IMG/VR virus record: IMGVR_UViG_3300031784_000006
DNA length: 64,000 bases
DNA from: a virus
Lineage: Duplodnaviria; Caudoviricetes
Reading direction: 5' to 3' (one strand)
Shown piece after piece: positions 7,080 through 58,470 of the stretch; positions within the stretch are counted from its first letter, which is position 1, and every line of letters starts with the position of its first letter. Under the pieces are notes generated by a model that searched no databases, was not told the origin of the DNA, and worked only from the letters and a program-made list of their open reading frames with translations. The translations under genes and the position numbers were made by a program.

Positions 7080-7151
7080 AGCCCCCGACCGGATTTGAAC
7101 CAGCGACCAACGGTTTACAAAACCGTTGCTCTACCACTGAGCTACAAGGGC
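7080..7151 (-). tRNA. tRNA-Thr(UGU)
   Basis: Cloverleaf; anticodon arm ACGGT-TTTGTAA-ACCGT; T loop TTCAAAT. Confidence 0.95.
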
Positions 7152-7152
7152 A

Positions 7153-7422
7153 TTAATCAACAGGCAACATTTCTGGATTTTCCAGTTCCAACTCATATAA
7201 GAGAGGATGACATTCTTCAAGCATTAAGTAGTATGATGCCTGATAAAGGTCTTCTGGTTCAAATCTTCTTTCGTTATCTGCTAATTCGATTAATTCCAAA
7301 TCGAATATTGATTCGTCTGGCAAATCGTCAAAAGTAAAGGGAATTTGATTTATGAAATACAGCAGAACAATTTGTGTTCCGCGATTATACCAAACGTATC
7401 TGGCATCTATTCTGTATTTCAT
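7153..7422 (-). CDS. Hypothetical protein (89 aa, acidic)
   Basis: ORF between two tRNAs, co-oriented. Confidence 0.65.
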   Translation of the reverse strand: MKYRIDARYVWYNRGTQIVLLYFINQIPFTFDDLPDESIFDLELIELADNERRFEPEDLYQASYYLMLEECHPLLYELELENPEMLPVD

Positions 7423-7463
7423 AGAATAGTCCTTTCTTTTGTTTATTTAGAGGAAGAACCTCA

Positions 7464-7536
7464 TAGGCGTGGTCGGATTCGAACCGACCCTGGAGGCGTT
7501 TTAAGCGCCCTGTCTCTGCCGCTGGACTACACGCCC
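7464..7536 (-). tRNA. tRNA-Leu(UAA) with a short variable loop
   Basis: GGGCGTG/CACGCCT acceptor, A73, anticodon loop CTTAAAA, 5-nt variable region. Confidence 0.85.
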
Positions 7537-28387: not shown

Positions 28388-29076
28388 TTATTCAATAGTA
28401 ATCGAAGGGGGATCAATACAATCCGAACATCCTTCGCGAGTCCAACCAAGTGCTTCAGATACTGCAGGAAACTGGCAGGTGAAGATGCAACGAACAAGTT
28501 CTGCAATCTCCATGTGTTCCTTCTGTGTTCCATGTGCAGAGCGAAGATCGATGTAGTGTATCCATGACCGCACAGAACCGGTCATATAGAGGCGTGTAGG
28601 GGTCGCTAGCGGCAGTACGAACCTTGCACACTCCTTTGCTACTCCTTTCTCCAGAAGGCGATTATAGAGGCGTAGAGACTGCTCAAAATGAACACGGATA
28701 TCTTCTGTAAGAGTCAAACGCAGATAGTCAGGAATATCATCAATACTATTCTGACGATTCTTGGTATCCTGACGACGGAGTTCAGGAAGAGGAATAGTCT
28801 TATTCAAAAGATTTGCGTCAGCATATCGTTGAGAAAATTCTTGATATGTAAAACTACGGTGACGCAAAATTTGAGCCGCAATACCACGAGTAGTATTAAT
28901 TTCTACAGTCATACTCGCTTGCTCAAAGATACTCCAGTGTTGATGTTGAATACAATACTTGAGCAGTCCAGAGAACTTCTCATTCTCTTGATTAGCAGGA
29001 TTACTCACTCTTGCACAATAAGCCATGTGCTTCTCTGCATCCGGAGTAACACTGATGAGTTTTACTTCTGGTTTCA
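28388..29076 (-). CDS. thyX: FAD-dependent thymidylate synthase
   Basis: RHRSFTYQEFSQRYA ThyX motif; start codon uncertain. Confidence 0.95.
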
Positions 29077-29099
29077 TGAACTCGAATTCAGTATAATTC

Positions 29100-29273
29100 T
29101 CAATAGTCATCTAAATCACTATCCTCAAAAATTTCGTCATAGTCGGCAAGATAAGGAACAACTTCCTCATAATTCAGTTTATAAGAATCTACATCAGAAT
29201 AAATCTCCGACTTTAAACATTCTACCAGAGATTCAAGATTTCTGACAATTAACTTAAGCTTCTCTCTATCCAT
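29100..29273 (-). CDS. Small acidic hypothetical protein, 57 aa (MDREKLKLIVRNLE...)
   Basis: Hand translation; lies downstream of a sigma70 promoter. Confidence 0.65.
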   Translation of the reverse strand: MDREKLKLIVRNLESLVECLKSEIYSDVDSYKLNYEEVVPYLADYDEIFEDSDLDDY

Positions 29274-29296: not shown

Positions 29297-29335
29297 ATTA
29301 TATACAAAAAAAAGAGGGGAGTCAAGTCCCCTCTG
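29297..29335 (-). promoter_or_regulatory. sigma70 promoter overlapping an intrinsic terminator
   Basis: TTGACT-17-TATAAT inside hairpin AGAGGGGA/TCCCCTCT plus T-tract. Confidence 0.8.
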
Positions 29336-29357: not shown

Positions 29358-29456
29358 TTATCTATTACCAACAAGTTGAGCAATAGATGCTTGATAACGA
29401 CGATTTTCTTTTAGCTTCTGCTCTTTAATGAGTTGAAGTACATTGAGTTTCTTCAT
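29358..29456 (-). CDS. 32-aa basic peptide (MKKLNVLQLIKEQKLKENRRYQASIAQLVGNR)
   Basis: ATGA overlap with the DUF4278 gene; GGAG RBS. Confidence 0.65.
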   Translation of the reverse strand: MKKLNVLQLIKEQKLKENRRYQASIAQLVGNR

Positions 29457-29590
29457 TTGTGACCCTCCTTAGTAAACTTAACACCACGATAGGTTTCGTT
29501 ATACTGTTGGGGTTGTTGCATCATTTGTTGTTGATACTCCAGACGCTTCTGGGTATCATACTCGATGCCACGATATACTACTTTAGCCAT
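29453..29590 (-). CDS. DUF4278-family small protein (45 aa)
   Basis: Two YRG motifs: MAKVVYRGIEY...TYRGVKF. Confidence 0.8.
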   Translation of the reverse strand: MAKVVYRGIEYDTQKRLEYQQQMMQQPQQYNETYRGVKFTKEGHK

Positions 29591-29619
29591 TAGGATTTCT
29601 TCCAGAATGAGATTGTTAG

Positions 29620-29720
29620 TCCCGTTCCTTCGGGCGGTTTGCGTTCGCTATATGCGAATAGCGAATGAACGTTCCGTTCCGCCGTCCTACTTGCGTCGGA
29701 TTTCTCCGATGAACGTAAGG
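29620..29720 (-). ncRNA. Tandem glutamine riboswitch (glnA / Downstream-peptide class)
   Basis: Two CGTTCA-stem-CGCAA...GGAACG units in the 5' UTR of the DUF4278 gene. Confidence 0.75.
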
Positions 29721-29722
29721 TC

Positions 29723-29751
29723 ATTATAGACCCGTTAATATAGTTATGCAA
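29723..29751 (-). promoter_or_regulatory. sigma70 promoter for the riboswitch transcript
   Basis: TTGCAT-17-TATAAT immediately upstream of the first aptamer. Confidence 0.75.
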
Positions 29752-29769
29752 GAACTTTTGTTACTTTTG

Positions 29770-30096
29770 TTACCGTTCTATATAACTCAATGTATGGTTC
29801 TGTGCATACAACTGCTCTATGATAATATCACATCCAATCTTGGGATTACAATCACCGCAAGTATATACATCCACAGCGGCTTTACCTTCTTCTGGCCATG
29901 TATGAATGCTGATATGACTTTCTGATAATAAACAGATTACAGTTACCCCTTGTGGTTCAAACTTTTTTGATATTGTTTGAACCACTGTGGCACCGCTGGC
30001 AATTGCGGCATTTTCTAATAAATCTATAAGACAACGCTCATCGTCCAAAAGAACAAATGAGCAACCATATAAGTTAAGTAGATAATGTTTTCCCAT
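29770..30096 (-). CDS. speD: Pyruvoyl-dependent S-adenosylmethionine decarboxylase family
   Basis: F.PQGVT...LLSESHISIHTWPE...DVYTCG. Confidence 0.9.
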   Translation of the reverse strand: MGKHYLLNLYGCSFVLLDDERCLIDLLENAAIASGATVVQTISKKFEPQGVTVICLLSESHISIHTWPEEGKAAVDVYTCGDCNPKIGCDIIIEQLYAQNHTLSYIER

Positions 30097-36373: not shown

Positions 36374-36631
36374 CAATTGTGTTATCGTAGTGGTTCTTTA
36401 TCCTCTACTTCTTACTGTCGCCAGTAAGTTCAGACTATCTCTTCATCCTTATGTTTATTAAGGAGTCGGGCATTCGTGGGTAGATTATTGTTGGGACTCA
36501 CTACCTAGTCGTTAGACCTTTCAGAAAACTTAAACCCTTTCTGACTTGGTACGGGATTGTCTCATAGAGAGTTTCCCCGTTTAACCCGATTTTACTAATG
36601 CCTATTACTAGGCAAGAACACCAACAAATCT
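36374..36631 (-). mobile_element. Group I self-splicing intron in psbA (258 nt, no internal ORF)
   Basis: Exon ends in U, intron ends in G; IGS GGTGTTCTT pairs with exon AGGAACGCT; core-like AAATCGGG, ACGACTAG, AAGAGATAGTCT. Confidence 0.92.
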
Positions 36632-37639
36632 AGCGTTCCTTTCGTGCATTACCTCCATGCCCAGACCAGCACGGTTAAGTACATCAGCCCAGGTATTAAC
36701 AACACGGCTCTGACTATCCAGAATACTCTGGTTAAAATTCAGACCGTTGAGATTAAAAGCCATCGTAGAAACACCAAGAGCGGTGAACCAGATGCCTACA
36801 ACAGGCCAGGCAGCAAGGAAGAAGTGCAGCGAACGTGAGTTATTAAAGGAAGCATATTGGAAAATAAGGCGTCCGAAATAACCGTGAGCAGCAACGATGT
36901 TGTATGTCTCTTCTTCTTGTCCGAACTTATAACCGTAGTTCTGTGACTCATTCTCGGTGGTTTCACGAACCAGTGAAGAAGTAACCAGAGAACCGTGCAT
37001 CGCAGAGAACAGTGAACCACCGAAGACACCAGCAACTCCAAGCATGTGGAAGGGGTGCATCAGAATGTTATGTTCTGCCTGGAACACAAGCATGTAGTTG
37101 AAAGTACCAGAGATACCCAGGGGCATCGCATCAGAGAAAGAACCTTGACCAAAAGGATACACCAGGAACACTGCAGAAGCAGCAGCAACAGGTGCGCTGT
37201 AAGCAACACAGATCCAAGGACGCATTCCAAGACGATAGGAAAGTTCCCACTCACGACCCATATAAGCATAGATACCGATCAGAAAGTGGAAGACGACCAG
37301 TTGGAAAGGTCCTCCATTATATAGCCACTCATCCAGAGAAGCAGCTTCCCAAATTGGGTAAAAGTGCAGTCCAATAGCATTGGACGAAGGGATAACAGCA
37401 CCAGAGATGATGTTGTTTCCATACATAAGTGAACCAGCAACGGGTTCACGGATACCATCAATGTCCACAGGAGGAGCACCGATGAAGGCGATGATGAAAC
37501 AAGTTGTAGCAGCAAGTAGGCAAGGAATCATAAGGACTCCGAACCAACCGACATACAGACGATTATCGGTTGAAGTAACCCAGTTGCAGAATTGTTCCCA
37601 AGTATTTGATTGTCGTTGACGTGAAATTGTAGCAGTCAT
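36632..37639 (-). CDS. psbA: Photosystem II D1 protein, exon 1
   Basis: [21 protein letters not shown] ... MHERNA; REWE gives Glu at D1-130 (high-light type). Confidence 0.98.
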
Positions 37640-37801
37640 TTGTTTAAAAGAGTAGTAAGACCATCAGGGAAATGGTGGAGTTACTATGCTCCCGCCACCC
37701 TCAGGCGGGATATGAGAGACGTACTTTATACTCCCCATAGGTCTCGGTTAATGGGAGTTGCAATGTAACGAATTATGAGGAATCCGTAACATTTGTTTAC
37801 C

Positions 37802-58340: not shown

Positions 58341-58470
58341 GCAATTCAGGCTCGCCACCAATTCTTTGACTGGAAATTGGAAACCAGGCGGGAGAGAGTC
58401 CCATCCGCACCACTTGCTCTTGAGAGAAGCAAGAAACTCATAGGGGTCATTTTGACTCCACCACTTAGTT
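58341..58470 (-). ncRNA. Cyanophage wcaG/manA-class structured RNA
   Basis: Repeated GTTTC-stem-loop-stem-GTGGYG units upstream of a sugar epimerase. Confidence 0.65.

Follow-up and report, generated by a model that had tools for sequence, protein, structure and literature searches.

A nested pair of glutamine-aptamer-type units precedes two micro-protein genes in a T4-like cyanophage

The stretch of DNA analysed here, which we call the window, is 64,000 nucleotides long (IMG/VR record IMGVR_UViG_3300031784_000006; Caudoviricetes) and is T4-like cyanomyovirus DNA. Between speD (29770-30096) and thyX (28388-29110), both on the minus strand, lies a compact locus that is itself wholly on the minus strand. 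It comprises a promoter-like site, a leader RNA with two interacting units of the glutamine-riboswitch type, two short open reading frames (ORF1 and ORF2) and an intrinsic terminator. A first-pass annotation, made from the sequence alone, had read this locus as a nitrogen-sensing module with a tandem glutamine riboswitch, a DUF4278 protein and a small basic peptide. Here we describe the architecture of the leader, the two peptide families and the interpretation that we place on them. All features below are on the minus strand, and the strands of the RNA are mostly numbered in the 5′ to 3′ direction, so that positions fall.

The Rfam check for a glutamine-riboswitch-type leader was positive: model RF01739 (glnA RNA) scored 37.6 bits on 29717-29619, above its cut-off of 35, with an E-value of 0.00015 over the whole window and of 1.2e-06 in a 501-nt search. 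This match joins the 5′ half of unit 1 with the 3′ half of unit 2, leaving a 52-nt insert in P3. The corresponding check against the Downstream-peptide family (RF01704, Glutamine-II) was negative, as unit 2 alone scored 21.1 bits, under the cut-off of 33. Unit 1 consists of CGUUCA (29715-29710), a hairpin (29709-29696), CGCAAGUA (29695-29688) and GGAACG (29680-29675); unit 2 consists of CGUUCA (29671-29666), a hairpin (29665-29644), CGCAA (29643-29639) and AAGGAACG (29630-29623). Across the family the 5′ part is laid out as CGUUC(1)-A-hairpin A-CG(C/G)AAGUA-H5′-C-GGAACG(1) and a linker of 3-5 nt, and the 3′ part as CGUUC(2)-A-hairpin B-CGCAAA-H3′-(G/A)AAG-GAACG(2)-N, where (1) and (2) number the copies of a strand and H5′ and H3′ are the strands of a shared helix, H. 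The pocket nucleotides, namely CGUUC, the CGC linking strand and GGAACG with its capping base, are those described for the solved structures (PMC6698751).

Placed on the window, the outer helix P1 is opened by CGUUC(1) (29711-29715), which pairs with GAACG(2) (29627-29623) in both the Rfam alignment and the RNAalifold consensus. It is followed by hairpin A (29696-29709; 5 bp and a GAAA loop), the equivalent of the type-I P2, in which all four aligned pairs change on both sides and 99.7% of alignment cells are paired. The linking strand CGC(1) and AAGUA, the 5′ side of the E-loop, occupy 29688-29695, and C29693 caps with G29622 (alignment columns 39-123). The 5′ strand of helix H, GGACGG (29682-29687), has its partner in CCGCCC (29632-29637), with several covarying classes. 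GGAACG(1) and a 3-nt linker, GAA, lie at 29672-29680; GAACG(1) pairs with CGUUC(2) in an inner helix that was predicted de novo, and the first linker G, G29674, pairs with C29641 of CGC(2). The inner unit is made up further of CGUUCA(2) (29666-29671), its P1 strand; hairpin B (29644-29665; 8 bp), where four of five pairs covary; and the linking strand CGC(2) with AA (29639-29643). The element ends at 29622-29631 with GAAG, the 3′ side of the E-loop, then GAACG(2), the 3′ strand of the outer P1, and the capping G29622.

An exact-pattern scan for the junction between the units found it in at least 119 viral contigs, giving 85 distinct elements that could be parsed and 83 relatives that were aligned for covariation. 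The same element is present in S-PM2 (between speD and p190/p191), S-CREM1, S-CAM7, S-H34, MA10, S-B68 and others. Hairpins A and B and helix H covary among the 83 relatives, with 94.9% of cells paired, compared to 83.0% after shuffling. The covariation score is 0.300 for the real alignment and 0.090 for shuffled ones, and none of 500 shuffles reaches the observed value. When the partner strand was slid by 1-3 columns, 29-54% of cells were paired. Chance is excluded, because no shuffle matches the covariation and because both downstream ORFs are under purifying selection (below). Helix H falls into compensated classes (AGUCG/CGACU, AGUCA/UGACU, GGCUAACG/CGUUgAGCU and, in the window, GG(A)CGG/CCG(C)CC), with two positions kept as A·C or C·A mismatches. 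A pairing of GGCGG in unit 1 with CCGCC in unit 2 had been proposed in the first-pass annotation; the pairing is real and covaries, but its family-wide register is GG(A)CGG (29687-29682) with CCG(C)CC (29637-29632).

All four P1 strands are invariant, so P1 itself does not tell the possible CGUUC and GAACG partners apart, and we assigned them via the capping pair. In the solved structures this pair joins the third base of the CGC linking strand to the distant base that comes next after GAACG (PMC6698751). Under a nested assignment, the base that follows GAACG(2) can pair with CGN(1) in all 83 relatives (64 C:G and 19 G:C). The inner equivalent, between the C of CGC(2) and the first base of the linker, can form in 81 of the 83 (83 of the 85 parsed elements). 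Under a side-by-side assignment, the two capping pairs can form in just 78% and 77% of cases. RNAalifold, run unguided, also predicted the outer P1, hairpin A, the inner P1 and hairpin B, which is the nested fold. As judged from this comparative evidence, the leader is an outer type-I aptamer that encloses a circularly permuted second unit, and both units share helix H. The earlier description as a tandem thus holds in that there are two interacting aptamer units, but nested describes their architecture better.

Many relatives carry a peptide-coding insert of 137-143 nt at the hairpin B position. An insert of 137, 140 or 143 nt takes the place of the hairpin in at least 120 further viral contigs (L167-L286) and in the isolates S-SRM01 (L007, 953-1120) and DSL-LC02 (L003, 1017-1169). 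The insert codes for a conserved peptide of ~50 amino acids (aa), the AUG lying directly after CGUUCA-UCU. The stop codon UGA falls within GAC-UGA-AGGAACG, in the outer aptamer E-loop, in 65 of 68 distinct elements. This embedded ORF has a median dN/dS of 0.17, its third codon positions are the most variable, and it gives a weak match to phrog_504. Its translation must unfold part of both aptamers.

Downstream of the leader, ORF1 (29453-29590) encodes 45 aa with two YRG motifs and is the first gene after the element in nearly all relatives. It had been called a YRG-repeat DUF4278-type protein, and this is supported: ORF1 is DUF4278-like and matches phrog_5049 with E = 1.5e-11, and PF14105 (DUF4278) gives 51 bits for a 62-aa three-YRG relative whose N-terminus is similar. 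The score of ORF1 itself on PF14105, 19.9 bits (E = 0.001), does not reach the cut-off of 25.3, and this counts against the assignment. In most pairs of relatives dN/dS is ~0.02-0.1, indicating strong purifying selection. Glutamine riboswitches in cyanobacteria mainly control DUF4278 proteins, IF17 among them (PMC6212724). In Synechococcus WH7803, a DUF4278 gene and an adjacent hypothetical gene (RS10040 and RS10045) are co-induced early by a podovirus (log2 2.63/2.55; PMC7885011), and the host may likewise carry a two-gene unit of this kind.

ORF2 (29358-29456) encodes 32 aa and overlaps ORF1 by ATGA, so the basic peptide gene that the first-pass annotation had placed there with an ATGA junction is also confirmed. 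The family consensus is N.L.LIK.Q..KE.R.H.AQL, with K11, K16 and R19 conserved, and dN/dS is ~0.15-0.5 in most pairs, again indicating purifying selection. An AlphaFold2 model of the N-fused family (below) has a mean pLDDT of 72, with a helix over residues 3-23 at pLDDT ~85 and low-confidence strands in the YRG region. Searches of Pfam, NCBIfam and the PDB gave no match to ORF2; among the PHROGs the N-fused relative matches phrog_545 with E = 1.3e-28, and the window ORF2 alone gives no hit.

The two peptide modules are found in several arrangements. The ORF2 module is a separate gene with the ATGA overlap in the window and in ~30 distinct relatives; it is fused C-terminally to the YRG peptide in S-CREM1 gp206 and L053, N-terminally to a two-YRG peptide (phrog_545) in L017 and others, and stands alone directly after the riboswitch in L124 and L042, while it is absent in some relatives. 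The split, N-fused, C-fused and stand-alone forms can be aligned with one another. As relatives fuse the two modules in either order, ORF1 and ORF2 are likely to act together.

Outside phages, an ORF2 profile run against 1.84 billion cluster representatives recovered 130 clusters, all of them small proteins of the ORF2-family kinds, and some of these matches come from picocyanobacterial genomes, including Vulcanococcus, Cyanobium and Synechococcus. The 33-aa host homologue stands alone, 16 nt after a Glutamine-II riboswitch, at 19 of 20 loci (35.6-46.9 bits; cut-off 33), and no DUF4278 gene was found within 1.5 kb of it at the picocyanobacterial loci. The host gene with its riboswitch (L131-L164, 1430-1599) often lies just after a tRNA and an ornithine carbamoyltransferase-like ORF. 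A phage-like metagenome contig (L130, 2918-3168) has a fusion of the helix with two YRG motifs after a type-II aptamer (52.2 bits) rather than after a nested type-I element, which indicates that phages use both aptamer classes for this peptide family. On the strength of its conservation and neighbourhood, ORF2 is a real peptide of what appears to be a glutamine-riboswitch-controlled family, one without a family assignment.

Transcription of the unit would start from a sigma-70-type promoter-like site at 29723-29751, with TTGCAT at 29751-29746, a 17-nt spacer and TATAAT at 29728-29723, as the first-pass annotation had proposed. A consensus promoter scan did not return this site because its −35 box fits TTGACA at just three of six positions. 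TTGACT, TTGCAT or TTGCCT followed by 17 nt and a TATAAT-like box is seen at the same position in most of the 83 relatives. In the window TATAAT ends 7 nt ahead of the first CGUUCA, which would put the transcript start at ~29716, and in many relatives the −10 box is 7-8 nt upstream of CGUUCA, so that the transcript probably begins at the aptamer.

Further upstream, at 29760-29773, is an NtcA-box-like site, GTA-N8-AAC, with one mismatch to GTA-N8-TAC and its centre ~50 nt upstream of the predicted start. The canonical GTA-N8-TAC begins −62 to −56 from CGUUCA in 64 of the 83 relatives, and 74 of them have one at any position within 70 nt of upstream sequence, compared to 1.7 in shuffles. In NtcA-activated promoters the classical box is centred at −41.5; the box at this locus is at about −50. 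NtcA boxes are frequent in T4-like cyanophages (PMC3037559).

The predicted terminator downstream of ORF2 is likewise present, at 29305-29334, with an 8-bp G+C-rich stem (29334-29313) and then a U run. A second and strong promoter-like site, TTGACT-17-TATAAT (29297-29325; 11 of 12 matches), begins within the terminator loop, and downstream of it is a 57-aa acidic ORF (29100-29273) whose place beside the unit is conserved in S-PM2 (p192) and S-SRM01.

Overall, the best explanation of the locus, and one that we consider probable, is that a nested double glutamine aptamer governs two micro-proteins according to the glutamine level of the cell. The locus would be a complete transcription unit of the early type, carried by a freshwater T4-like cyanophage, in which a sigma-70-like promoter and a slightly degenerate NtcA box would produce an mRNA that starts almost exactly at the double aptamer. 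The first CGUUC and the last GAACG would close a canonical type-I (glnA) three-way junction, whose third arm, helix H, would lead into the circularly permuted second unit. In that inner unit GAACG(1) and CGUUC(2) would form a hairpin-closed P1, closed by the short linker and accompanied by its own hairpin and CGC linking strand. As each unit has the full pocket set seen in solved structures of both types, type I and type II, there are probably two glutamine-binding sites in the RNA, which would make its response steeper than that of a lone aptamer. The leader would then control translation of the ORF1 YRG peptide and the ORF2 basic α-helical peptide, presumably turning it on, and the phage would make effectors of the kind that the host places under glutamine riboswitches according to the glutamine level of the cell. 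The virus can probably read the nitrogen state of its host in this way.

What the peptides act on can be approached by analogy. It is a real possibility, although not one that we expect to hold, that they act on another component of the nitrogen-status circuit, such as PII, PipX, NtcA, GOGAT or a transporter, or on translation, and that the riboswitch only times their synthesis. The lack of similarity between ORF2 and IF7 fits such a target, as does the host ORF2-type gene standing alone with no DUF4278 neighbour within that 1.5 kb. The picocyanobacterial peptides found behind glutamine riboswitches are themselves of unknown function (PMC6316151), and through its conserved NtcA box the unit is linked with the 2-oxoglutarate/NtcA circuit (PMC3037559). 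Nothing points positively to any particular alternative, however, and IF17, the sole characterised member of the DUF4278 class, acts on glutamine synthetase, which by this analogy would be the leading target candidate.

The first-pass annotation had gone further and proposed that the two ORFs are a split system resembling the inactivating factors of glutamine synthetase. In its full form this reading has ORF1 and ORF2 as a split IF17-type factor that would bind and inhibit host glutamine synthetase at high glutamine, with ORF2 supplying the basic helix that is missing from short picocyanobacterial IF17-like proteins; we regard it as possible but rather doubtful. The part that stands is that the ORFs belong together, given their fusions in either order. 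In favour of the remainder, IF17 is among the DUF4278 proteins that are the main targets of cyanobacterial glutamine riboswitches, and the IF17-like proteins of Prochlorococcus are without the C-terminal region that makes contact with glutamine synthetase (PMC6212724). The ORF2 helix is basic, with its conserved K11, K16 and R19, and the ORF2-YRG fusions resemble the two-part build of IF17.

Sequence comparison weighs against an IF-like ORF2. An IF7 family, a group with three essential arginines, was retrieved with a probe sequence (557 hits, one of them named IF7 in UniRef; 24 aligned), and hhalign of the ORF2 profile against the IF7 family profile gave a probability of 0.27% over 5 columns. 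None of the 130 clusters matched by the ORF2 profile resembles IF7 or IF17, and the IF7 profile found nothing relevant among solved structures. The fusions occur in both orders, compared to the one fixed order in IF17. Inhibition by IF17 reportedly does not require its DUF4278 part, and doubts have been raised that inactivating factors control glutamine synthetase in marine picocyanobacteria (PMC6316151). A complex prediction with two Synechococcus glutamine synthetase copies (L165) and the ORF2 alignment returned 0.00, which is evidence neither way. As ORF2 is not IF7-like by sequence, action of the peptides on glutamine synthetase is suggested by analogy only.

A bolder version would make the ORF2-type helix the missing nitrogen effector of picocyanobacteria, acting alone in hosts and joined with the DUF4278 module in phages. 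At high glutamine it would bind and shut off a central enzyme or regulator of nitrogen metabolism, glutamine synthetase or another, with the phage version coupled to a phage-specific, cooperative nested aptamer and an NtcA box. We put this forward as speculation that is rather unlikely. If true, glutamine and 2-oxoglutarate signals would be integrated at the locus, and the phage would take over host nitrogen assimilation during infection.

The direction of control was considered from the expression platform (29591-29621). The ORF1 leader has 32 nt from the last aptamer strand to ORF1, with a weak Shine-Dalgarno (SD) sequence, GGAAG (29603-29599; GGAGG in close relatives), and UCUCAUUCU (29612-29604), which could pair with GGAACGGGA. 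In a sister class of leaders, with CGG(1) and a capping C, P1 is followed by CUCUUU, an anti-SD that pairs with the SD AAGGAG, and in a folding model the SD is unpaired with a probability of 0.05, which increases to 0.37 once the aptamer holds the capping base. Release of an anti-SD is the ON mechanism proposed for gifB (PMC6212724).

Two observations at the locus itself count against the best explanation. In the capping-G class, to which the window belongs, there is no clear switch: SD accessibility in the window is 0.27 bound and 0.33 free, and the class means are 0.38 and 0.46, so the direction of control at this locus is something that we only infer. ORF2 has a strong SD of its own, AAGGAGG (29470-29464), in a region without significant structure (fold z = −0.33), and riboswitch control of ORF2 would therefore need translational coupling.

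It is conceivable, if somewhat unlikely, that the capping-G class switches OFF with glutamine, opposite to gifB. In such a mechanism UCUCAUUCU would pair with GGAACGGGA when P1 is open, and would be freed by P1 formation to pair with the SD. The 8 of 9 pairs that UCUCAUUCU can form with GGAACGGGA, the ability of its UCUC to pair with the SD GAGG in close relatives, and the slightly lower modelled accessibility in the bound state are all consistent with this. The difference between the two states is small, however, other G-class leaders are without a mimic of the UCUCAUUCU type, and the sister class, which has the same genes, is clearly ON.

The nested topology has points against it also. Because P1 is invariant, the choice between nested and side-by-side hangs on one covarying pair; the 19 G:C capping cases mostly share one downstream leader type, so that independent events may be few; and the inner capping G, in a loop of 3-5 nt, looks sterically tight. 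Local helices form first during transcription. Even so, we think it improbable that the leader holds two independent side-by-side aptamers with local P1s, with helix H as a kissing contact or with topologies that alternate during switching, since this reading, which the invariant CGUUC and GAACG strands permit equally and with which 77-78% of capping pairs are still compatible, leaves the 19 sequences with G in CGN(1) with G/G or C/C where nesting gives G:C and C:G, runs against the pairing picked by both the Rfam model and RNAalifold, and keeps apart the type-I E-loop halves AAGUA and GAAG, which meet solely in the nested fold.

As to the source of the DNA, identical DNA is present in lake-water and freshwater metagenomes, which marks this as a freshwater phage. 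The nearest isolates in the phage collection searched are only ~76-86% identical over short parts, and none there is closer. Contigs from four metatranscriptome studies cover 29392-29703 with hardly any flank; these are best seen as relatives recruited by the conserved part, showing neither transcript ends nor expression level, and at most they hint weakly that RNA libraries contain the family. Elsewhere in the window, Rfam searches found, all on the minus strand, a wcaG RNA (58344-58441; 104.9 bits), a PhotoRC-II RNA (37676-37768; 77.3 bits) and a group I intron (36411-36641; 63.9 bits), as well as eleven tRNA genes near 7080-7536 and 59284-62767. Such cis-regulatory RNAs are typical of cyanomyoviruses.

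How picocyanobacteria control their glutamine synthetase and nitrogen assimilation has yet to be settled (PMC6316151). These hosts dominate ocean and lake primary production, and their many glutamine-riboswitch-controlled peptides are without known function. The locus points to a second such peptide family besides DUF4278, indicates through the fused and split forms that the two families cooperate, and suggests that the system has been taken over by phages. It also offers compact constructs for testing, the RNA being 99 nt long and the peptides 32, 45 or 55 aa.

Among the closest known systems is the gifB glutamine riboswitch of PCC 6803 (PMC6212724), with which the phage locus shares the Rfam class, the pocket nucleotides and a downstream DUF4278 gene; sister phage leaders also have the base after P1 opening an anti-SD. 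The phage RNA differs from gifB in having two units nested via a shared helix instead of one three-way junction, and in being phage-borne. Its product is 45 aa long and lacks the IF7-like C-terminal domain, and a second, unrelated peptide gene overlaps. IF7 and IF17 (gifA and gifB) are themselves small basic proteins that are made when nitrogen is plentiful, and IF17 has an N-terminal DUF4278 part. In contrast, ORF2 is not IF7-like, and ORF1 has no C-terminal glutamine-synthetase-binding domain.

Glutamine-II riboswitches (RF01704) with short ORFs in marine and freshwater picocyanobacteria provide host counterparts of both peptide types (PMC2864571, PMC6212724), and their binding core is shared with the phage element (PMC6698751). 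The phage element differs in being of the type-I kind, and its unit 2 alone stays below the Glutamine-II threshold. The tandem junction pattern was not found in 401 genomes of the picocyanobacterial family of the host-like genome, which fits the published finding of type-II-only aptamers in marine picocyanobacteria (PMC6212724).

Among phages, the glnA RNA reported for S-CREM1 (PMC9964418) and for two cyanophage genomes (PMC5473149) is the same element, and the 99-nt feature of S-CREM1 is the nested double unit. The passages of PMC9964418 and PMC5473149 considered here list a single glnA motif and name general nitrogen genes as targets; neither a nested fold, nor an NtcA box, nor the peptides encoded downstream are described in them. 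Glutamine aptamers in cyanophage genomes (PMC5473149, PMC9964418, PMC9602691), tandem glnA RNAs (PMC2864571) and the link between glutamine riboswitches and DUF4278 (PMC6212724) have thus all been published already. In a literature search that did not cover Ames & Breaker 2011 (RNA Biol 8:82), we found no earlier description of a nested shared-helix topology with a permuted inner unit, nor of the ORF2 family, its shuffling with DUF4278, the conserved NtcA box or the frequency of the element in cyanophages.

In its use of two units, the element most resembles the tandem glycine riboswitch, a cooperative double aptamer in which two aptamers for the same amino acid are likewise in contact within one leader. 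In the phage RNA an arm of the outer unit contains the other, which is circularly permuted, and cooperativity is putative. The nested double aptamer would be a natural two-site amino-acid sensor built around a shared helix, and as such a useful companion to the tandem glycine riboswitch.

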